Assembly: GCA_910578745.1 (NCBI GenBank) | Contig: CAJTSN010000027.1 | Coordinates: 5,099 to 22,102 of the forward strand | Direction: 5' to 3' | From: an uncultured Bacilli bacterium | GTDB taxonomy: Bacteria > Bacillota_I > Bacilli_A > RF39 > UBA660 | DNA length: 17,004 bases | Part shown: positions 4,608-13,787 of the stretch, piece after piece | How positions within the stretch are numbered: position 1 is the stretch's first letter | How the letters are laid out: each line of letters starts with the position of its first letter | The notes under the pieces: model-generated | Told to the model about the DNA's origin: nothing | Seen by the model: the letters and a program-made list of their open reading frames with translations, nothing else | Databases searched by the model: none | Program-made: the position numbers and the translations under genes

Positions 4608-4761
4608 AGAATCACCACTATTATTATACTATACTTTTTTTCTATTTAATAGTTTTTTTTCTAAATTTTTAGAGCTTGTCCTTTTTTCAGTTCCTTTTTA
4701 AATTTTCTATTCTTTTTGTTTTAAAAGAATTCTAATAAATATGCTCTATGAATAATAAATT

Positions 4762-4794
4762 TTTTCAAAAAAAGATTTCGATTTTAAGCGAAAC
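4762..4794 (-). terminator. Weak intrinsic terminator after the metallopeptidase-VWA gene
   Basis: The minus strand reads GTTTCG-CTTAAAAT-CGAAAT followed by CTTTTTTTG. The stem is short (5-6 bp) and AT-rich, with a U-tract immediately after the stop at 4798. Confidence 0.35.
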
Positions 4795-4797
4795 CTA

Positions 4798-6276
4798 TTA
4801 CCTTTTTCTTTGTCCTACCTCATACTGATGTAATCTTGATAGTGCACTTTCATTTATATATATTACCTTTCCACCCACTGGATTTATTTTACAATTACCA
4901 AATACAATCCAGATTGCATCTATTTGCGTATTTGGCATATCTGCCCATCCATCCGTAAAAATCACCTTATTTTCCACTCTCCTAGTAAAAGCACCTACAG
5001 CTGCATTAAAATCAGTGCCTCCACCGCCATAAAAGGTTAAATTATCAATATCGGATTCATCTTTTATTTCTGTAAACCCATAGAATTTTGTATCAAAACA
5101 TCCTACCTTTACTTTCGAATTTTGCAATATATTTTTACATTCCCTTAAGAAATTTCTAAGAAGTATTTCATCAATAGAACCACTTGTATCCAACACAATT
5201 TCTGTTTCAGGTTTTGGCATTTCTTCTAGATAGGGTGTTACTACACCATCCTCAATTCCAGCGTTTTCATATGACCAATCGATAGCATAATTTACGGCTT
5301 CTTTTAACAATATTCTCCAATCAATTAAGGGTTCAGATATTCCAATAGATGTTATATTTCTTATATTCTCATTTGCATCGTTGCTATGGCCATGTGACTG
5401 ACTTGCTAATGCATTTTTAAGTTCTTCTAGTTGCTTCTTACGTTCAACCTTATTTTGTCTAAAGGCCTCTTTCTCTCCCAATTGTACTATTTTTTGAATT
5501 TCATCATACCTTATGTTTTCTGACTCCAATTCTGGCTCTCTATCTACTTCCTTTTTTGTTTCCTGTGACGATTCTTGTTTTTCCTCTAACCTGTCGTTTG
5601 CACTTTTCTCTTTAGAAGGATTTTCCTCTTCTTTACTTTTTCTCTCGGTTGCTTTTTTCCACATAGAATGTGTATCGTGTCCAACATCATGATATTCATT
5701 CGTATCTTCCCTAACATCTGATTGTGTCATTTTTTCAGATGTCTGATTTGGTTCTTTTTGACCATCCTGCTTTTGTTGATTCTCATTATTTGAGGAACTT
5801 TGTTCGAATTGATTTTCTCCCTGTTGTGTCTTATTTTCTGCATCCACATTTTTTTGATTTTCGCTTGAACTATTCTTTTCTTGTTTCTTTTTCTCCTCTA
5901 ATAGTATCTGATATAATTCTTCTGCGTCATAGTCAATTGCTCCTTGAATATCAACTCCTCCTTTTGACAAAGGTAGGCCATCGTGTTTTAAAAAAGCATT
6001 GATAACGGCATCCGTTGCCATATTCCATAAATCTGGGTCTTTTCCAACACTTCTCCATATATGATTAAAAGCAATATGACAGATTTCATGGGCAAGTATA
6101 AATACCTGTTCCATAATAGGAATAGAGGAAAAAAAGGTAGGATTATAGTATACAACCTCTCCATCCGTTCCTGCTGTTTCTAAAGACATTTCACTTTTAA
6201 ATTTACAATGAGCAACTACACTCCCAAAAAAAGGATACTTTACTAACACTTTATTTATAACTGTCTCTATATTCAT
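4798..6276 (-). CDS. Metallopeptidase-like (HExxH, DUF2201_N-type) plus VWA-like (DUF2201-type) protein with a long disordered linker
   Basis: The N-terminus reads PFFGSVV...TAGTDGEVVYYNPTFF...LAHEICHIAFNH...WNMATDAVINAF. The C-terminal VWA has an intact MIDAS-type set: DTSGS, GGGGTDF and FTDGWAD. I set the start at the ATG at 6276 (AGGAAA 8 nt upstream). The ORF-track start at 6321 has no RBS and overlaps the upstream gene. Confidence 0.8.
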   Translation of the reverse strand: MNIETVINKVLVKYPFFGSVVAHCKFKSEMSLETAGTDGEVVYYNPTFFSSIPIMEQVFILAHEICHIAFNHIWRSVGKDPDLWNMATDAVINAFLKHDGLPLSKGGVDIQGAIDYDAEELYQILLEEKKKQEKNSSSENQKNVDAENKTQQGENQFEQSSSNNENQQKQDGQKEPNQTSEKMTQSDVREDTNEYHDVGHDTHSMWKKATERKSKEEENPSKEKSANDRLEEKQESSQETKKEVDREPELESENIRYDEIQKIVQLGEKEAFRQNKVERKKQLEELKNALASQSHGHSNDANENIRNITSIGISEPLIDWRILLKEAVNYAIDWSYENAGIEDGVVTPYLEEMPKPETEIVLDTSGSIDEILLRNFLRECKNILQNSKVKVGCFDTKFYGFTEIKDESDIDNLTFYGGGGTDFNAAVGAFTRRVENKVIFTDGWADMPNTQIDAIWIVFGNCKINPVGGKVIYINESALSRLHQYEVGQRKR

Positions 6277-6286
6277 AGTATATTTC

Positions 6287-6688
6287 CTAAATTTGAGCAC
6301 ATAAGGAATATACTTCCTCATTCATTTTATGCATTCTTAAATCAGAACAAGTGGCAACAACAAAACAATTTTTAGGTAAATCAAAAGTACTCACTTTTTT
6401 ATATTTTAATATTTCCACAAATTTTGTTTGTTCTTCTAAAGCAATTTCATTAATATTTTCAATCACTAAAATCACAGGACCTAATTTACTTTTCTCTAGT
6501 AATGTTTTATACCATTCTGGAGGACAAAATTCTATATTCTCATAGTGTCCATTTAATTGAAGTCTATCTATATCTGCTTTTATAATAACCGCATTATCAA
6601 AAACAGTAGCAGGGATGTTTTGAATTAATAAAGGAGAGATGCCAGATTGCATATAATTTTCTAATAAACTTAATCTATCTTTATTCAT
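6287..6688 (-). CDS. Degenerate AAA-like protein with no P-loop, a paralog of the core of the upstream ATPase
   Basis: The 133-aa ORF has GGAGG 9 nt upstream, and its ATG overlaps the upstream stop (ATGA). It aligns by eye with the AAA core of the 6685-8295 product. PPEWYKTLLEK matches PPTWYSKVKEK, VILVIENINEI matches IHIIFFDELTNA, LPKNCFVVATCS matches IPSNARIVAAGN, and LLIQNIPAT occupies the place of FLHGRSSEGKS. Confidence 0.6.
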   Translation of the reverse strand: MNKDRLSLLENYMQSGISPLLIQNIPATVFDNAVIIKADIDRLQLNGHYENIEFCPPEWYKTLLEKSKLGPVILVIENINEIALEEQTKFVEILKYKKVSTFDLPKNCFVVATCSDLRMHKMNEEVYSLCAQI

Positions 6689-8295
6689 CGTCTTATTCCT
6701 CCTTGGGTATTCATTTCAGACATTTGTATTTCGAGGAGTCGCTCTAATCTGGATTCATCGCCATGTACCCACATCGATTCAAAAGCCGCTCTTGGCTCTG
6801 CGCCCACTCGTTTCATAAAATCTCTTACTATTTCAAAATGTTCATCATCAACAGAAGATAAACCAACAGCGGTTGCAAATTTCTGTGATACATCCATTTC
6901 GAAGTCCCATTCTGAGTAATTATGATGAATTACATCTTCAATACTTATAACTTGAAGTTTTGTAAATGCAACAAAATCTCTTGTTAACTCCTCTCCTATT
7001 AATGCACGAAGCATTTCTGGTTTTTTCGTCTTATAAAGCACTTTGGAAGCCATCTCCCATTTTCTTGGATCTGCATTTGGCTTATCTCCTGTATAAGGGG
7101 TTCTTAGTACATCATAACCACTATAGGATTTATAAGCCACATAAGCATAAATTGCTGGATGAATAAGGTTCTCTTTTTTTTCCTCTTTATAATCCACCCT
7201 CTCATATTTGTCTCTTGGCGTAGATGCCCATTTTAACCAACTATCTACGGTTGTTTGAATGTATACGTGTGCGAATCGATTAAATAAAGGCTCTGCCATT
7301 TGATTAGCGGCTAACGAGTCATTCAAATCATTCCCAGCGGCCACAATTCTTGCATTCGAAGGAATCTTCCATTTTCCATCTACTTCTCCATCTAACACAA
7401 TATTAAACGCCATTCCCTGAATAGAAGGAAGTGCATTTGTAAGTTCATCAAAAAATATGATATGGATTTTATTTGGTTCTTTTTCACATTTTTCCTTTAC
7501 TTTGCTATACCATGTTGGTGGCACATCGATCATTTCCCCTGTTTGTGCATTATATACACTTTTTCCATTTAAACTATTCGGTGTTGCATTTCTCATATAT
7601 ATAATTTCACAGTCTGGATCAAATTGTTTTACTCTTGCTGACTTACCCTCACTTGATCTACCATGTAGAAACACCGAAATGTTACTTTCTATAGCCCCTT
7701 TAATAATCTCTTCTTCCGATACATTCCCAAAATCAAAATGATAGGGATTTTCTTTTCGTAGTTGTTTTCGTTCATCTGAAATTTCAACTTGCTTTGTGTC
7801 CTTTTGTACATAGACTGTATCAGCCATTATTTCCTTTGCAAAACAAGTATCCATAAATTGTTTAATATCTGTTTTATCAAAGTTTCCATCATAATTCCTT
7901 TGATTTTTAAATTGAACTCCTGAAAATATAATTTTTTTACAAAGTGCAATATTCGTTCTTTCATCTACTAACCAAATAATTGGTTCAACTTCTACCCAAC
8001 ATTCACTTCCAAATTGAACCGATCTTCCATTGGATAGAAACTGACCATCACAGTTTTCATCAACAATAAAACGAATGTATTTTTTTCCATTATATTCATA
8101 TTCTACATGCTTTCTAGCTTTAAATTTTATATCTGTATCTCGATAGCTGACACAATCGGTTGTATAACTTTTTCCTGTTGTTTTTAAATTACCTCTTTTA
8201 TAGAATTCCTCTAATATACGTGCGTCATTATCACTTACTATAGTCTGAGGATATTCTCCATAATTAACTTCCTTAATTCCATTAGCGACTCTCAC
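6685..8295 (-). CDS. MoxR/AAA_5-like ATPase body of the DGR target. As an isolated ORF it has only a GTG start and no convincing RBS.
   Basis: Walker A is GRSSEGKS (7639-7662) and Walker B is IIFFDE (7444-7461). The sensor-1-like segment is RIVAAGND, followed by EPLFNRFAHVYI. Upstream of the AAA core lies a beta-rich segment (YGEYPQ...WVEVEPIIWLVDE). The frame is open and continuous upstream through the VR to the TGA at 8395-8397. Confidence 0.8.
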   Translation of the reverse strand: MRVANGIKEVNYGEYPQTIVSDNDARILEEFYKRGNLKTTGKSYTTDCVSYRDTDIKFKARKHVEYEYNGKKYIRFIVDENCDGQFLSNGRSVQFGSECWVEVEPIIWLVDERTNIALCKKIIFSGVQFKNQRNYDGNFDKTDIKQFMDTCFAKEIMADTVYVQKDTKQVEISDERKQLRKENPYHFDFGNVSEEEIIKGAIESNISVFLHGRSSEGKSARVKQFDPDCEIIYMRNATPNSLNGKSVYNAQTGEMIDVPPTWYSKVKEKCEKEPNKIHIIFFDELTNALPSIQGMAFNIVLDGEVDGKWKIPSNARIVAAGNDLNDSLAANQMAEPLFNRFAHVYIQTTVDSWLKWASTPRDKYERVDYKEEKKENLIHPAIYAYVAYKSYSGYDVLRTPYTGDKPNADPRKWEMASKVLYKTKKPEMLRALIGEELTRDFVAFTKLQVISIEDVIHHNYSEWDFEMDVSQKFATAVGLSSVDDEHFEIVRDFMKRVGAEPRAAFESMWVHGDESRLERLLEIQMSEMNTQGGIRR

Positions 8296-8339
8296 TCCGT
8301 TCGAGGAGATAGATGAGATTAATAAAGAATAAGGTAAAG

Positions 8340-8413
8340 CGGGACGAGCCCCAACAGAACGTCCCGTAACATGGGAGCAGTCCCTATTCCCATTTCAGCC
8401 AACGGCGCGCGCG
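8340..8413 (-). repeat. DGR variable repeat (VR)
   Basis: It aligns base for base with 9922-9995 (offset +1582). There are 13 mismatches, at 8357, 8358, 8363, 8364, 8373, 8375, 8376, 8377, 8382, 8383, 8396, 8399 and 8400. Every one lies opposite a plus-strand T of the TR, which is a coding-strand A. No mismatch occurs at the other 51 positions. Confidence 0.92.
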
Positions 8414-8622
8414 TCATTATCACCATCAGATGACTTTGTCCACCAACAACCTGCTCTATCCTTTCCACTACATCCTTCATTTGTGTAAGAATTTGATGCT
8501 ACATAACCTCCTAATAAAATAGAAAAGTCTGTTATAGCACATGCTGTTCCATACTTTTTCATTATATCTAACGAATTGCTTCCAAATATCTGTTCCTCCG
8601 TTAGAAATGTAAAACTATTCAT
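8395..8622 (-). CDS. N-terminal fragment of the DGR target (variable ligand-binding-type domain), truncated by a stop generated inside the VR
   Basis: The 75-aa ORF has a good RBS. FLTEEQIFG...ACAITDFS...GCWWTKSS...ARAVG followed downstream in frame by VGARPAL resembles the '...WWLRS....A..V..G......GVRPAL' C-terminal half of lectin-like domains that are commonly DGR-diversified in Bacillota. This resemblance is from memory and has not been searched. Confidence 0.65.
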   Translation of the reverse strand: MNSFTFLTEEQIFGSNSLDIMKKYGTACAITDFSILLGGYVASNSYTNEGCSGKDRAGCWWTKSSDGDNDARAVG

Positions 8623-8674
8623 ATATATATCACCACTTTTATTTTAACATATTTTCCCATTATTTGACAATTTT

Positions 8675-9697
8675 TTATTTAAAAGGGAAAGTATCCATTT
8701 TTAGCCTTTCACTTTCTTGTGTATTCTTAATATGATTATAAAAAGCATTTTTTCGAATATATACATATTCATCATCAACGATTCCCTTATTATATAATTT
8801 GTTTACTGTTTTTAAATGTTTTCTCATTCGCTGTTTTGAAGTATACCTTAACTTCACAATGATTTTCCCTGTAGTTGTTAAAATATGACGATACCCTAAA
8901 AAATCGACTCCATTTTTAACCATTCCTATTTGTGTCTTATCATTTAATTCTAAATTCAATACATTTTTACATAATTTTTCGATTTCCTGTTTACATAAAG
9001 CTAAATATTTTTTATCTCTATGAGGTAATATCATATCATCCATATAACGTACATATCCACGAATTCTCAAACTTTCTTTTATAAAGTGATCCACTTTATT
9101 TAAATATAAAAGAGCAAACCACTGACTTGATTGATTTCCTAAAGGCAAACCCACACTTGCATGATCTGGTTGTTCCTGAATCAATTTCCTTATCATCCAC
9201 ATCTCATCCTCTGAAAAATGGATTTCTTCTAAAAGGTGAATCAATATATCATGATTTATACTGGGAAAATACTTACGTATATCACATTTTAAAAAATATA
9301 TATTATTATTATTTTCTCCTCTATATTCTTTTCTTAAAAAAGCATGCAATCTTTCTATAGCAAAATTTGTTCCCTTTCCTTTTCGACATGCACAATTGTC
9401 ATATACTAATCTTTTATCTATTTTAGGTTTTAAACAAGCATCACAAAAACATCGAATGACCACTCGATCTTTAAAGGGAAGCGCTTCTATTAATCGTTCT
9501 TTAGGTTCATAAACATAAAATTTTTTATATTTTCCTAATGTATACTTTTTTGTAACCAATTCTTTATGTAGAGTATTTAAATTAAGCGCTAAAGCGGTTT
9601 CGAATCGAATGACCTCTCCCTTATGTTGCTTAGACATCCTACAATTTTTATAAGCTTCATTCAAATTTTCAAAAGTAAAAATTTCATCCAAATGCAT
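8675..9697 (-). CDS. DGR-type reverse transcriptase
   Basis: RT motifs are present: EPKERLIEALPFKDRVV, FLKCDIRKYFPSI, the catalytic YVRYMDDMIL, and FLGYR. Motif 4 reads LPLGNQSSQWFA, the 'GxxxSQ' form typical of DGR RTs rather than the 'QGxxxSP' form of group II intron and retron RTs. The size is 340 aa and there is no X/En or extra domain. I set the start at the ATG at 9697 (GGAGG 5 nt upstream) rather than 9736. Confidence 0.9.
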   Translation of the reverse strand: MHLDEIFTFENLNEAYKNCRMSKQHKGEVIRFETALALNLNTLHKELVTKKYTLGKYKKFYVYEPKERLIEALPFKDRVVIRCFCDACLKPKIDKRLVYDNCACRKGKGTNFAIERLHAFLRKEYRGENNNNIYFLKCDIRKYFPSINHDILIHLLEEIHFSEDEMWMIRKLIQEQPDHASVGLPLGNQSSQWFALLYLNKVDHFIKESLRIRGYVRYMDDMILPHRDKKYLALCKQEIEKLCKNVLNLELNDKTQIGMVKNGVDFLGYRHILTTTGKIIVKLRYTSKQRMRKHLKTVNKLYNKGIVDDEYVYIRKNAFYNHIKNTQESERLKMDTFPFK

Positions 9698-9921
9698 ACT
9701 TTCCTCCAAAAAATAAACACCCCCTATAACGCACAAAGAGTCATCTTACTCATTGCTTGTGTGAGTGTTCCTATATTTTTCCATCGCATCTTTGAAAATA
9801 CATCTTTTAGCGATTAGAAAAGAAGAAAATTCCTTCACCTTACAATACGGATATATTTTTCTTAAAATATATTTCTCTGATTTGTTTTCTGAATTTTATA
9901 AAAATTCCTTCAAAAGTGAAT
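9698..9921 (-). ncRNA. TR-to-RT spacer, probably part of the non-coding DGR template RNA
   Basis: It has no credible ORF on the minus strand. It lies between the TR and the RT start, where DGR spacer RNA is located in characterised elements. Several AT-rich hairpins are visible, for example GAAUUUU-UAU-AAAAUUC and AUCGC...GCGAU. Confidence 0.45.
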
Positions 9922-9995
9922 CGGGACGAGCCCCAACATTACGTTTCGTAACATTGTTTCAGTTTCTATTCCCATTTTAGTTAACGGCGCGCGCG
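9922..9995 (-). repeat. DGR template repeat (TR)
   Basis: It is a non-coding copy of the VR with 23 coding-strand adenines. In the target frame it reads A R A V N * N G N R N * N N V T K R N V G A R P and is rich in AAC/AAT codons. It is bounded by CGCGCGCGCC at the 5' end and GGGGCTCGTCCC at the 3' end. Confidence 0.92.
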
Positions 9996-10071: not shown

Positions 10072-10665
10072 CTAATTTCTTTTTCTCCATCTTTCATCAT
10101 CGCTTTTCTTCCAAGCAATAACTAAATTAATTGTTTCTGCTAATTGCATAGAGATTTGATTATATTGCTTCTTTAAAATACAACCTGAACTCTCAGCAAC
10201 CATTGCTATATATCCAAGCAATTTCAATTTCACAATCGCTTCTTTTTGATAATGTTCCCTTTTTACTTTGTTTGAAGCAGAGTCCATTCGAATAAAATTT
10301 GCTTCTAATAAACACTCTATAGTATCTAAACAGTAATTCTGCATCCGATTTACAAATACACCTCTAAATTTCTTTGGAGATTTTTCTGTAACTGTAATTA
10401 CATAAGCACACAACTTTTTTGCTACTGTAATAACAATTAAATCATTTGCATTAGAAGGAATTTTATCAATTATTTTTAACTCTTCCTCTTCTACTTTCAT
10501 TTGTTCTCTCATCTTTTTTTGATTAAACTTTTCATGCGTAGCAACAGCGATTCCTTTTTTTGTTGCAATAACATCTTCAATTTCATTGGCTGTTCTTTCT
10601 ACAATCTCTATTTTTTTAGGAATTTTTAAATTATTATCACGACTGACTTGCAACACATGTATCAC
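10072..10665 (-). CDS. avd: Avd-like accessory variability determinant (four-helix-bundle family). The start is uncertain.
   Basis: The C-terminal segment of about 130 aa (KKFRGVFVNRM...LLEANFIR...KREHYQKEAIVKLKLLGYIAMVAES..ILKKQYNQIS..LAETINLVIAWKKS) fits the Avd/four-helix-bundle pattern. The gene sits immediately upstream of the TR. The ORF-track start is a GTG without a well-spaced RBS. Internal ATGs (codons 52 and 56) would give a more typical size of about 140 aa. Confidence 0.75.
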   Translation of the reverse strand: MIHVLQVSRDNNLKIPKKIEIVERTANEIEDVIATKKGIAVATHEKFNQKKMREQMKVEEEELKIIDKIPSNANDLIVITVAKKLCAYVITVTEKSPKKFRGVFVNRMQNYCLDTIECLLEANFIRMDSASNKVKREHYQKEAIVKLKLLGYIAMVAESSGCILKKQYNQISMQLAETINLVIAWKKSDDERWRKRN

Positions 10666-10729
10666 AACCTTATTTCAATTCATTGAAGTAAGCAAATAGC
10701 TCTTTTTCATACTCATTTGAATGATTTAT

Positions 10730-10738
10730 AGTATATCA
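10730..10738 (-). promoter_or_regulatory. Candidate extended -10 promoter for the avd/TR/RT transcript
   Basis: The minus strand reads TGaTATACT (TG at 10738-10737, hexamer at 10735-10730), about 65 nt upstream of the avd ORF. There is no good -35. Confidence 0.3.
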
Positions 10739-10885
10739 CCTTTTTTTATCTTTGAATAGTCCTAATTTAAAATCATGTCATTTTATTTCTTTTCCAATCT
10801 CTTATTCTCTTAAAAAGTATGTCGAAAAAGAAGAGATGAATTGTAATAAAGTATATATTTTAGTATAGTAAGATTGGTGATTATA

Positions 10886-12022
10886 ATGAATCTATCAAAA
10901 TATAAAGTTGAAAAATCATTAGTCCTTATTATGATTTTATTTTTTACTATTAGTCTTATTTCTATTTATAGTGCAGGAGCAATTGATAGTGATAATGTTA
11001 ACTTATACATTAAACAACTCATGTGGTATATCTGTGGCACACTTTTAATATTTTTCATTATGTTTATTGGAAATGACTTTTTCATAAAAAATAGTTTTAT
11101 TTTTTATATTCTTGGAAATATTTTTCTTTTACTTCTTTTATTCTTCGCTCGACCCATTAATGATGCAAAATGTTGGTTTGAAATAAAAGGAATTGGGACA
11201 ATTCAACCCAGTGAGTTTATGAAAATCATTCTTATTCTTTTTTTAAGTAAGCAAATAGATGATTTTCGAGGGAAATACACAAATCCAACGATAACGGAAG
11301 AATTTTTATTTCTATTAAAAATAATTATCATCGTTTCAATTCCTAGTATTCTTACCTTTTTAGAACCCGATACTGGTGTTGTTTTAATTTATCTATTAAT
11401 TACCTTTATTATGCTTTTTGTTGGTGGTATTCGTATTCGATGGTTTTTGCTCTTTATTCTTCTGTGCGTTTTAGGAGTTGGGACTTTATTATTTATTTAC
11501 TTTCAAAACCAAGATTTATTTATTAAACTTTTTGGAACAAGCTTTTTTCTTCGTATTGATCGCTTATTAGATTGGTCCAATAAAAGCGGTTTTCAACTAG
11601 AACATGGTTTATTTTCAATTGGTTCGGCGGGTCCTTTTGGACACGGGATTAAAAAAACGCCCCTTTATTTTCCAGAAGCACACACGGATTTTATCTTTGC
11701 TGTATATGCTTCTAATTTTGGATTACTTGGATCTTTATTTCTTTTATGCCTCATCTTATTTTTTGACCTAAAACTGATCCAAACCGCTTTAAAAGCAAAA
11801 AATAATATTTATAAATATATTACAGCTGGAATTGTTGGAATGCTTATCTATCAACAAATTCAAAATATAGGAATGACTTTTGGAGTCATGCCCATTACAG
11901 GTATTACTTTACCCTTTATAAGTTATGGAGGTTCTAGTTTATTAAGCTATATGTTTATGGTTGGAATTCTTTTCAATATTTCGAATCATGTACTAAAATA
12001 CCACCGAAACTATTATAAATAA
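10886..12022 (+). CDS. SEDS-family peptidoglycan glycosyltransferase (FtsW/RodA/SpoVE)
   Basis: It is a polytopic membrane protein of about 10 TM helices with family motifs QPSEFMKI, EPDTG, PEAHTDFIF and LPFISYGGSS. The ATG at 10886 is preferred over the TTG at 10874, but the start is uncertain. Confidence 0.88.
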   Translation: MNLSKYKVEKSLVLIMILFFTISLISIYSAGAIDSDNVNLYIKQLMWYICGTLLIFFIMFIGNDFFIKNSFIFYILGNIFLLLLLFFARPINDAKCWFEIKGIGTIQPSEFMKIILILFLSKQIDDFRGKYTNPTITEEFLFLLKIIIIVSIPSILTFLEPDTGVVLIYLLITFIMLFVGGIRIRWFLLFILLCVLGVGTLLFIYFQNQDLFIKLFGTSFFLRIDRLLDWSNKSGFQLEHGLFSIGSAGPFGHGIKKTPLYFPEAHTDFIFAVYASNFGLLGSLFLLCLILFFDLKLIQTALKAKNNIYKYITAGIVGMLIYQQIQNIGMTFGVMPITGITLPFISYGGSSLLSYMFMVGILFNISNHVLKYHRNYYK

Positions 12023-12130: not shown

Positions 12131-12156
12131 ACAAAAAAAGAGAAACAATTCTCTTT
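12131..12156 (-). terminator. Intrinsic terminator after the pilin-like gene
   Basis: The minus strand reads AAGAGAA-TTGT-TTCTCTT (12155..12138), a perfect 7-bp stem, followed by TTTTTTG. Confidence 0.7.
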
Positions 12157-13787
12157 TATTTAATCGTTATAACAGGTCTAAAACCAATTTTCAAATTGGC
12201 AGAACCATTTGTTCTATCATATGCATATAGTCCACTCGTTGTATTTCCAGAATAGTTTCCACCACGAACCATATATTTATTTGTAGCATCTACCATATTA
12301 TGCTTATCTTCATACTTTCCAAATAATGCCCCACCAGCACAATTGGCTTCTGTATTTAAACACGCTTTATTCGGGTAATAATCGACATATTTATTATCTA
12401 TAGCCGTTCCCCCTAAATTCAAAGATGTTCCATTATAGGCCATAACAAATTCTTCGTATCCTCCCGACATATCATAAATACCTGTGATATTCCCAGAAGT
12501 AGTTCCACTCATAGAAGCTTGACTCGCATAATTATTCTTGCACTCCGTAGAAACACTTCCACCAGCATTTCCAGAAGTACAACCTGTTATTGTTCCTCTA
12601 TTATAGTAATTATTAAGCCATATTTCTTCCTTTTTTCCATAATTAGAATCGGTTAGGTAAGCAACAGCCCCCCACTCCACATTCTTCATAAGATGGGTAT
12701 CAACTTGTGCAGAATTTAACCCAAATGAATCTGTAGAAGTAGCCATATTTTGTGTAACTTTAAAAGCATTAGCAAGGGATATACCTGACCAAGAATTTCT
12801 ACCTGGAACGGTTACTAAATCAATATGTGTTTTATTACAACTTGCTATATCTGGCGTTTGAAAGCAACTTGTATTAATAGGAGCACTCGCCTCGAATTTC
12901 GCAACCCACATTCCTTCTAACTGCTTTCCACCAAATTGAAAAGCGGGATGAATTCGATAGCCACTCGTTGGTGAAGTCTGTGTTGTTTTAATAAAGCGAA
13001 TAGCAAAACCATTTCCTTCTTGCTTATACTCATATCGTGGAATCCATACATACATTCCTGTTACATCATCTAAACTAATTTTAGTTCCTGGAACAGCTCT
13101 TTGATAATAAGATCTTGCATGTTTTGCATTTCCATCTAGGCAAGTTACTCCCTGTCTAGACTCACAATCAGACTTATTCTTAGAAAATGTCATCGCATTT
13201 GCCCATTTCTTTTCTCCATAGTTATACCAAGCTGTCGTCTTATCGGCTATAACCCAGTAACCTTTATCTTCCCTATACACAACTGGCACTAATCCATCAA
13301 CTAAGGAAGGATAAATTCCATCTTGCAAAGTATTATCTTTATAAGATGGCTTTGGTTCTTTATTTACATCGGTTGCATTTGTACACTCAATATCTTCAGA
13401 CAAAACATATTCAAATTCATTAAACTCATTCGTCGTTGCATAAATAATTCGCTTTAAAAAATTTTTCTTTTCTTCCTCGGTTTTCCCATAATCAATATAA
13501 TCTTGTAATTTTTCTTCTTCTATCTTTCCAGCATCAATTAATTCTTTAATAGTAATACAATAACTTGCCCTCTCTTCAGGCCCTATATATAGTTTTTGAT
13601 AAGTATTCGTATCGCCACTAGTATAGCTATCAGCTGCATCATACAACATTTGCTTTGCTGTATCACTAATAGCCCCTCTTTTAGATGCTGTCAAATTTTG
13701 AATTTGTGGAAGAGCAACAATAATAACTAATCCCATGATTATGACTACTGCTAACATTTCTACTAAAGTAAATCCTCTTTTTCTCAT
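12156..13787 (-). CDS. Prepilin-type (type IV pilin/pseudopilin-like) protein with a large C-terminal FGE-sulfatase/C-type-lectin-like domain
   Basis: The N-terminus MRKRGFTLVEMLAVVIIMGLVII is a class III signal, with cleavage after G and Glu at +5. The C-terminal part has WVAKFEAS, VEWGAVAYL, GIYDMSGG and a terminal MVRGGNYSG...GFRPVI, resembling the 'RGG....GFR' end of FGE-like folds. Confidence 0.7.
   Translation of the reverse strand: MRKRGFTLVEMLAVVIIMGLVIIVALPQIQNLTASKRGAISDTAKQMLYDAADSYTSGDTNTYQKLYIGPEERASYCITIKELIDAGKIEEEKLQDYIDYGKTEEEKKNFLKRIIYATTNEFNEFEYVLSEDIECTNATDVNKEPKPSYKDNTLQDGIYPSLVDGLVPVVYREDKGYWVIADKTTAWYNYGEKKWANAMTFSKNKSDCESRQGVTCLDGNAKHARSYYQRAVPGTKISLDDVTGMYVWIPRYEYKQEGNGFAIRFIKTTQTSPTSGYRIHPAFQFGGKQLEGMWVAKFEASAPINTSCFQTPDIASCNKTHIDLVTVPGRNSWSGISLANAFKVTQNMATSTDSFGLNSAQVDTHLMKNVEWGAVAYLTDSNYGKKEEIWLNNYYNRGTITGCTSGNAGGSVSTECKNNYASQASMSGTTSGNITGIYDMSGGYEEFVMAYNGTSLNLGGTAIDNKYVDYYPNKACLNTEANCAGGALFGKYEDKHNMVDATNKYMVRGGNYSGNTTSGLYAYDRTNGSANLKIGFRPVITIK

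Follow-up and report, generated by a model that had tools for sequence, protein, structure and literature searches.

In a window of DNA from an uncultured Bacilli bacterium (17,004 nucleotides of contig CAJTSN010000027.1, the whole of which is meant by "the window" below), we found a three-gene operon whose first gene is the target of an adjacent diversity-generating retroelement (DGR) and encodes an ATPase predicted to belong to the MoxR class. The DGR is naturally active, and our comparisons show that it rewrites about 15 codons of the N-terminal domain of the ATPase in this species. The ATPase gene is followed by a gene for a protein of 133 amino acids (aa), probably a dead paralog of the ATPase core, and by a gene for a DUF2201 protein that joins a zincin-like domain to a von Willebrand factor A (VWA) domain with a metal ion-dependent adhesion site (MIDAS). 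Taken together, we read the cytosolic MoxR/AAA_5-class sensor ATPase, its dead paralog and its zincin-VWA partner as a hypervariable sensor-effector of the MoxR-vWA conflict type, a reading to which we give a probability of about 50%.

The window DNA is chromosomal and of low GC content (~30%), and its minus strand from 10665 to 4773 forms a single compact cassette, running from an Avd-like gene through the template repeat (TR), the reverse transcriptase (RT), the target gene with its variable repeat (VR), the 133-aa gene and the DUF2201 gene to a terminator-like hairpin. The features of this cassette are as follows.

10072-10665, minus strand: Avd-like accessory gene, 197 aa, recognised by weak profile matches and conserved position.
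9913-9995, minus strand: TR of 83 nucleotides (nt), with an in-frame TAA (9979-9977) and TGA (9961-9959) in the VR reading frame.
8675-9736, minus strand: DGR reverse transcriptase; likely start at the ATG at ~9697, giving 340 aa as in the gene callers' version.
8641-8670, minus strand: promoter-like site, TTGTCA-18-TAAAAT with TG, found by consensus scan in the 52-nt gap between RT and target.
6685-8622, minus strand: DGR target gene, with a VR domain, a beta-rich middle and a MoxR/AAA_5-class ATPase; a TGA lies inside it at 8397-8395.
8331-8413, minus strand: VR, with a GC-rich hairpin (8353-8340) at its 3' end.
6287-6688, minus strand: gene of the 133-aa putatively inactive AAA-core paralog, recognised by BLASTP and hhalign against the target.
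4798-6276, minus strand: gene of the DUF2201 protein, 492 aa, with a zincin-like HExxH domain, an acidic linker and a C-terminal VWA/MIDAS domain.
4773-4796, minus strand: terminator-like hairpin with an 8-bp stem and a T-run (T7 tail), which closes the operon.

The VR (8413-8331) differs from the TR (9995-9913) at 16 positions, 14 of which are adenines in the TR, and the two repeats match over ~74 nt. When read in the VR frame, the TR contains AAC TAA AAT GGG AAT AGA AAC TGA AAC AAT and has seven AAY codons and two nonsense codons. Eight further contigs of the same species were recovered by exact look-up of the 133-aa protein, and among the conspecific loci the TR was 100% identical in all seven that retain it, whereas the eight VR alleles all differed from one another, with changes at 93 of 184 TR-adenine positions versus 1 of 408 other positions. 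Moreover, the mutual differences of ten further intact protein variants in the 90% cluster were essentially confined to the VR. The RT, encoded ~180-220 nt downstream of the TR, matched general RT models (RVT_1, E=6e-17; PADLOC generic RT, E=9e-36; group-II-like RT, E=1e-26), and its translation shows the YMDD and GNQSSQ (SQ) motifs. The Avd-like protein had matches below the cut-offs to bAvd (PF22296, E=4e-5, 24.5 bits, cut-off 40) and to NF033474 DivGenRetAVD (E=1.8e-6, 28 bits, cut-off 80); the position of its gene is kept in loci L001-L004 and in metagenome loci, and the size of its C-terminal part fits Avd. The recognisable four-helix part of Avd covers only residues 77-188 of this protein, which has an N-terminal extension of ~75 aa without a match. 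The VR lies in the N-terminal domain of the target and not at the C-terminus as is usual for DGRs. Further, the block Avd-TR-RT-target-small gene-DUF2201 is kept in four other species known from metagenome-assembled genomes (MAGs; labelled Bacilli, Bacillales or Tenericutes), where the targets are 60-78% identical, and the same cassette occurs in several metagenome lineages. Because the whole block recurs in other species, the cassette is not a chance assembly.

The three genes of the operon are tightly coupled. The target frame (8622-6685) is continuous over 646 codons with the one internal TGA, and its stop codon shares bases with the start codon of the 133-aa gene (cgATGAat at 6688-6685), which AGGAGG precedes by 10 nt. 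The 133-aa gene ends with TAG (6289-6287), exactly 10 nt before the ATG at 6276 of the DUF2201 gene; this start, which gives the 492 aa, is that of the homologs and the gene callers' choice in eight conspecific contigs. The DUF2201 gene stops with TAA at 4800-4798, and the hairpin follows directly as the sole strong terminator-like site on the minus strand, the others being the GC hairpins of TR and VR and a weak 5-bp stem within coding sequence. Promoter-like sites in the region, among them the one at 8641-8670, were not more frequent than expected by chance.

The target consists of the VR domain (aa 1 to ~105), a beta-rich middle domain (~117-260) and the ATPase (aa ~300-645), in which a helical extension follows the AAA core at the C-terminus. 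The window target had no significant match in Pfam, NCBIfam or PADLOC. Its homologs are numerous: 3143 matches were obtained among the 8000 candidates scored, nearly all of ~645 aa and at full coverage, and the intact homolog P0001 is 99% identical to the window target. A full-database phmmer search with the ATPase part gave 4110 cluster representatives, and among 61 distant relatives 38 matched AAA_5 (best E=5e-15), 11 AAA_3 and 2 bpMoxR. The Walker A (GRSSEGKS), Walker B (FFDE), sensor 1 (VAAGN) and NRF motifs were invariant or nearly so in 38 homologs, Walker A being present in 87 of 89 loci, and the catalytic motifs are nearly invariant across ~90 loci. A full-length AlphaFold model, in which the ATPase region had a predicted local distance difference test score (pLDDT) of 59.7 and fold searches gave generic AAA+ matches only, was replaced by a model of residues 286-645 built from a 55-sequence alignment (pLDDT 90.8). 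The top 14 PDB matches of this model were NorQ or NorQD (E=2.5e-9, template modelling score 0.61 on the target), followed later by dynein AAA modules, RNF213 and MCM, with CbbQ (6l1q) at rank 21; searched as a sequence profile against PDB, the ATPase gave only insignificant matches to NtrC, McrB and CbbQ (E>0.1 for CbbQ and McrB). On the strength of the model and of the distant relatives, we assign the target ATPase to a divergent MoxR-class (NorQ/CbbQ type) AAA+ group. The VR domain carries the motif W...G...V..R.GARPAL, and its resemblances, both seen in homologs, are weak: to the C-terminal half of DUF6273 (E=1.5e-5 in homolog P0096) and to Fib_succ_major (E=0.06).

The 133-aa protein is related to the target itself (BLASTP E=5e-5; hhalign 93% probability, E=3e-7), its residues 38-133 aligning with the beta-2 to beta-5 part of the AAA core (target residues 344-453). 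It lacks the Walker A motif (P-loop), and the DE of Walker B is replaced by EN. The family comprises 299 homologs, nearly all 133 aa long, and identity is 56-100% across the 120 listed homologs. We therefore regard the protein, judging by these residues, as a predicted catalytically inactive paralog of the ATPase core.

The DUF2201 protein scored above the Pfam gathering thresholds for PF13203 (E=1.8e-31, 110.2 bits versus 23.2) and PF09967 (E=5e-13, 49.7 versus 26.4). It has HExxH (AHEICH) and the MIDAS motifs DTSGS, GGGGT and TDG, and an acidic low-complexity linker of variable length lies between its zincin-like and VWA domains. HExxH is intact in 66 of 67 related loci and DxSGS in 60, and the MIDAS T and D residues are present. 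No functional study of DUF2201 was found in the literature. No hydrophobic segments were found in the target, the 133-aa or the DUF2201 protein, and the three-gene machine is predicted to be cytosolic. The anatomy drawn up in an earlier note on this DNA, made from the letters alone, thus held on every point tested: the tight coupling of the three genes by an ATGA overlap and a 10-nt gap lies exactly where it had been placed, with no second strong terminator-like site before the one after 4798; the retroelement-diversified domain of the ATPase is borne out by the adenine-biased VR/TR pair and by a VR that differs in every conspecific sample; the MoxR-type assignment is supported by NorQ/NorQD and then CbbQ as best PDB matches of the high-confidence model; the dead AAA paralog is confirmed by its similarity to the target, the missing Walker A and EN for DE; and the intact HExxH and MIDAS (DTSGS...T...D) of the VWA partner are conserved across related loci. 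Moreover, the note had asked whether such pairs are ever linked to a DGR, and the conserved cassette links them in several species.

The three genes also travel together in relatives of this locus. In 54 related loci with at least 2.5 kb of downstream sequence, the target was followed directly by both the small gene and the DUF2201 gene in 49, by the small gene in 51 and by the DUF2201 gene in 50. The triad is also present in relatives with 34-39% ATPase identity, and in distant triads the same order is kept: a 645-aa protein precedes proteins of 126 and 540 aa, an ATPase with Ank repeats precedes one of 121 aa, and a 1087-aa protein precedes ones of 137 and 480 aa, the small proteins matching the hidden Markov model of the 133-aa family at E=3e-20 to 2e-11. 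ATPase-only versions occur with the same partners (L006, L008 and L017). Around a constant ATPase core, the N-terminus is swapped among relatives for Ank, LRR_5, LRR_8 or WG repeats, DUF6273 or unknown domains, as one would expect if it were a sensor or adaptor module.

Some related loci depart from this arrangement. In L007, the most divergent genome locus (target 46% identical), a gene for a Fic/DOC-family protein (PF02661, E=5.6e-11) comes after the 133-aa gene at 10320-11237, and the 8 kb downstream yielded no DUF2201 protein; this single case may represent an exchange of the output component. L005 carries two tandem paralogous VR-domain ATPases (6081-7970 and 7992-9911) before one small and one DUF2201 gene, with no RT within 6 kb upstream. 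In L002 (10311-11601) the DUF2201 gene was found in three separate tblastn pieces and no single long open reading frame (ORF) was recovered, which may reflect a frameshifted or pseudogenized copy or an assembly error.

The TGA inside the window target is the TAA of the TR with one A-to-G change. The earlier note had treated this codon as a lesion to be repaired; because the stop is templated by the in-frame TAA in the TR, it is not decay, and the window holds a DGR-written, reversible null allele rather than a decayed gene. Indeed, four of the eight conspecific loci with the full cassette (the window, L011, L014 and L015) have a stop at one of the two TR-templated codons, L004 of another species has TAG at such a codon, and stops at such codons also occur in L038 and L041. 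In-frame stops are present in the TRs of 7 of 11 TR lineages examined and absent from L027, L044, L063 and L104. They lie as TAA at VR codon 2, as TGA or TAA at codon 8, and in L038/L041 as TAA at a later VR codon. TRs with in-frame nonsense codons include those of L001-L004, L038, L041, L076 and L088. AAY codons cannot turn into stop codons under adenine mutagenesis. Since the TR itself holds an in-frame TAA and TGA, many retrohoming events give null alleles, and the calculated share of products with a stop is 39% with uniform adenine replacement and 77% with the observed substitution spectrum.

Other explanations of the TGA were rejected. Reading TGA as tryptophan (code 4 or 25) is contradicted by TGA ending 3 of 16 window ORFs, including that of the ATPase; tryptophan is always TGG, no long ORF has an internal TGA, and the TR codon at this place is TAA. 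The organism uses the standard genetic code. A sequencing error or pseudogene decay was rejected as well, given the TR-templated position and the stops at the same two codons in independent assemblies.

A second kind of loss is also common. In 13 of the 23 conspecific contigs, a precise deletion of 1582 bp has brought a mutagenized VR-type repeat up against the 5' flank of the TR, and both the RT and target codons 1-75 are lost. The deletion form can be seen at L009 4199-4360 in comparison with L010 (2617-2780 and 4199-4360). The idea that most 536-aa database entries are VR stop alleles was therefore partly rejected, these 13 contigs carrying the TR-VR deletion instead. From this junction it appears that the DGR can delete itself, via TR-VR recombination or aberrant retrohoming.

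We found no account of TR-encoded stop codons in the searchable literature. It is conceivable, though we hold the idea only tentatively and consider it rather doubtful, that the nonsense codons of the TR are a maintained feature, and that the DGR, besides diversifying its target, switches a costly or self-harmful sensor ATPase ON and OFF stochastically and reversibly (phase variation). Each retrohoming event would then draw a new specificity and, at a probability of ~0.4-0.8, a null allele, and the population would always be a mixture of OFF cells and differently tuned ON cells.

For the mechanism of the proposed sensor-effector we draw on NorQ-NorD and CbbQ-CbbO. In NorQD structures a finger of the VWA domain reaches into the NorQ pore, and ATP drives the remodelling of the NorD linker by the ATPase (PMC13036017). 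By analogy, the target ATPase would form a ring, of which the dead paralog may be a member or a cap, and this ring would grip the VWA domain of the partner and remodel, driven by ATP, its linker and zincin domain. The six variable domains would decide which ligand triggers the remodelling or is delivered to it. More weakly, we infer that these ligands may come from invaders, as rapidly evolving molecules in the cytoplasm such as proteins of phages or plasmids, and that the output would lie in the zincin domain.

Several observations weigh against a hypervariable sensor-effector of the conflict type. With the models of PADLOC-DB v2 at E<=0.1 there was no match for the target, 133-aa or DUF2201 protein, and the RT matched only generic RT and DRT models; the flanks of the window and of seven other loci (66 ORFs in these seven) are overwhelmingly housekeeping with isolated single-domain PADLOC matches; and the module contains no canonical toxic effector. 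The window target scored below threshold against Pfam AAA_5 (E=0.089, 13.2 bits, cut-off 22), so the AAA_5/AAA_3 match of the window ATPase is transitive only, because its relatives and not the window protein itself pass. The sequence profile of the VR domain found nothing in PDB and fold searches gave no match attributable to this domain; a lectin-type fold is plausible from its sequence features, and a C-type-lectin fold was not demonstrated. In L001 (~10296-11777), a syntenic sister species and the sole exception among the 67 loci, HExxH is replaced by HVxxH, which leaves the need for peptidase catalysis in question. The phage N4 proteins gp24/gp25 are homologs of the ATPase/DUF2201 pair; the gp24/gp25 pair is conserved in N4-like phages and is also present in PA5oct-type jumbo phages, and in such phages host defence is an implausible role. 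Finally, among 45 loci with a VR-type N-terminus and at least 3 kb of upstream sequence, an adjacent RT was full in 12, matched partially in 6 and was absent in 27. In three lineages without an adjacent RT, 3-8 independent samples share one and the same VR-equivalent sequence, while single-nucleotide polymorphisms build up in other parts of the gene.

The invariant segments of the RT-less lineages look like frozen former VRs, and therefore the triad works, or at least persists, with fixed specificity. These lineages are represented by L033-L036 and L050, by L055, L056 and L058, and by L070-L087 (first 130 target codons), all with the triad intact. Across the related loci, the conserved unit is the triad, and the DGR is facultative. 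In sum, the conflict or defence function proposed in the earlier note received no direct support, in view of the blank PADLOC result, the housekeeping flanks, the homology to the N4 phage pair and the 27 of 45 loci without an adjacent RT. The neighbourhoods, inspected without a statistical test of the defence-island enrichment that it had suggested, turned out to be housekeeping regions and not defence islands. The anatomy in the note stood, its defence function stayed a candidate one, and its concept had already been published in another form.

The same facts can be read in favour of a housekeeping pair. Here the MoxR-VWA proteins would act in chaperoning or maturation (metal insertion or remodelling of a host complex, as with NorQD, CbbQO, RavA-ViaA and CoxD-CoxE), with the N-domain as no more than a substrate adaptor and the DGR as an accessory of a few lineages without a part in conflict. 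Among solved structures NorQ and CbbQ come closest, the flanks are all housekeeping genes, PADLOC is blank, and most family loci lack an RT and have frozen VR-equivalents while the triad is still intact. However, no candidate client enzyme is conserved beside the triad, the neighbours differing in every species, and the N-termini are swapped for Ank, LRR and WG repeats, which is typical of sensors and not of a dedicated maturase. Null alleles and deletion of the VR domain are common within one species, and the full-length target is therefore dispensable; moreover, a fixed host client sits poorly with hypermutation of the surface that binds the ligand. We consider such a housekeeping role unlikely.

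The phage homologs raise another explanation. Among phage records, tblastn found ATPase homologs in 618 and DUF2201 homologs in 641, mostly in Schitoviridae (N4-like) and PA5oct-like jumbo phages, with E down to 2e-20 for the ATPase and 8e-14 for DUF2201. Some RefSeq records call the gp25 homolog "HNH endonuclease", an apparent mis-annotation. The operon could thus hold a domesticated N4 gp24/gp25-like pair that keeps a phage function (nucleic-acid or replisome-associated remodelling, or superinfection exclusion), with a DGR of the same phage ancestry. Both homologs exceed 600 phage records, the pair of Kosakonia phage Kc283 (L019; 11831-12901 and 14114-15286) sits among exonuclease and helicase genes, and DGRs are common in gut phages. 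Against this, identity to the phage proteins is only 24-34%, there are no phage structural, integrase or lysis genes in the window or related loci, phage ATPases lack N-terminal domains, no 133-aa homolog was found in the N4-like phage region examined, and the cassette is stably chromosomal in many species. A retained phage function therefore seems highly improbable to us. A decaying relic, in which the target is a pseudogene through its TGA, DGRs are disappearing from the family and the module no longer serves any function in this genome, would fit the in-frame stop, the TR-VR deletion in 13 of 23 conspecific contigs, the RT that is partial in 6 loci and missing in 27 and the fragmented look of the L002 DUF2201 gene, but is very improbable, as the stop, which is the only damage, sits where the TR templates it (TR TAA to TGA) and can be reversed by the next retrohoming event, the RT, TR, Avd, 133-aa and DUF2201 genes are all intact, the TR is constant while VRs change only at adenine positions, and both the catalytic motifs and the 133-aa protein are as well conserved as described above.

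A hypervariable sensor-effector of this kind has published counterparts. That CLec domains of MoxR-vWA conflict systems can be diversified by DGRs was described in previous studies (Kaur et al. 2020, PMC7159879; Doré et al. 2024, PMC10907252). The VMAP ternary systems of these studies resemble the operon in having a MoxR-class ATPase, a vWA/MIDAS protein and a third conserved component, with a DGR-hypermutated ligand-binding domain on a cytoplasmic component, peptidase domains as outputs and a proposed logic that leads from variable sensor to ATPase to effector. However, in these systems the variable FGS/CLec domain lies at the vWA C-terminus, whereas here it is on the ATPase N-terminus and the vWA protein, which is of the DUF2201 type with a zincin-like domain, has no VR; their third component is VMAP, whereas here it is the putatively inactive ATPase-core paralog. 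No Pfam match to VMAP, iSTAND, FtsH or beta-propeller was obtained on the operon proteins, and adaptor, TIR, caspase and trypsin genes are missing here. Their hosts are cyanobacteria, Chromatiales and actinobacteria, whereas the present loci come from small-genome, unicellular gut Bacilli/"Tenericutes" MAGs. The iSTAND ternary systems (Kaur et al. 2020) likewise combine a MoxR-vWA pair with a catalytically inactive P-loop NTPase as third component, but here this NTPase is a 133-aa AAA-core paralog of the partner ATPase and not of the STAND family. What is new with respect to the published DGR and MoxR-vWA systems is the variable domain on the ATPase, the zincin-VWA partner and the dead AAA paralog as third component.

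NorQ-NorD and CbbQ-CbbO are alike in giving the best structural matches of the ATPase and in the layout of the partner (N-domain, linker and VWA with MIDAS), but sequence similarity to them is not significant and there is no cNOR (nitric oxide reductase) or Rubisco client here. The present ATPase has ~300 additional N-terminal residues and the helical C-terminal extension, and a zincin-like domain on the partner and a dead-paralog gene are further differences. N4 gp24 (an AAA ATPase) and gp25 (vWFA, DUF2201_N), whose function is unknown (PMC2784036), are homologous to both proteins, with the DUF2201_N plus VWA architecture, HExxH and MIDAS in common. In the phages, however, the ATPase has no N-terminal sensor domain, DGR link or 133-aa paralog, and the two genes are separated by other genes in the replication region. 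With canonical DGRs (Bordetella phage BPP-1 Mtd and Treponema TvpA) the element shares a cassette with TR and RT (here beside an Avd-like gene), adenine-specific changes, a TR rich in AAY codons and a hairpin in a GC-rich 3' end; it differs in its VR in the N-terminal domain of a 645-aa protein, its short TR (~74 nt matching the VR) and the in-frame nonsense codons of the TR. An N-terminal VR was seen in only 3 of 372 DGRs, and AAA/Midasin-like "UVR4" ATPase-containing targets were noted before in DGRs of the candidate phyla radiation (Wu et al. 2018, PMC5758913).

The cassette is flanked in the window by RNase J, a histidine kinase, a small protein resembling EIIB of the phosphotransferase system (PTS), FtsW/RodA and a prepilin-type (N_methyl motif) protein, and in conspecific contigs ribosomal protein L32 and YceD are found farther out. 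The prepilin-type protein (12156-13787) has 543 aa, unusually large for a pseudopilin, with an N-terminal methylation motif (N_methyl, E=1.3e-5) and no other recognised domain. A 35-55-nt motif with 73-80% identity recurs in the 5' regions of three genes, those for the PTS-EIIB-like protein, the DGR target and FtsW (4611-4665, 8629-8683 and 10861-10895); it consists of a TATA-rich box, then GTGGTGAT, then the start codon, and appears as direct or inverted repeats bracketing the cassette. This motif is probably a common promoter and Shine-Dalgarno layout and not the ends of a mobile element. The inverted repeats (I1/I2) were rejected as such ends, since both fall on the promoter and Shine-Dalgarno stretches of the two flanking genes and look like the target 5' region (D2). 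No tRNA genes that could serve as integration sites were found within the window.

The locus ties the long-unexplained N4 gp24/gp25 pair to a cellular family with exchangeable, sensor-like N-termini and gives a handle on both. The TR-templated stops and the TR-VR deletion illustrate ways for a DGR to silence or destroy the very gene that it diversifies, and they bear on DGR surveys, which routinely discard loci with silenced or destroyed targets as broken. If the sensor reading is true, DGR-diversified MoxR-vWA systems would reach beyond multicellular cyanobacteria and proteobacteria, and would exist, in a three-gene form that is simpler and more tractable, in abundant bacteria with small genomes that live in the human and animal gut; >3000 homologs were found.

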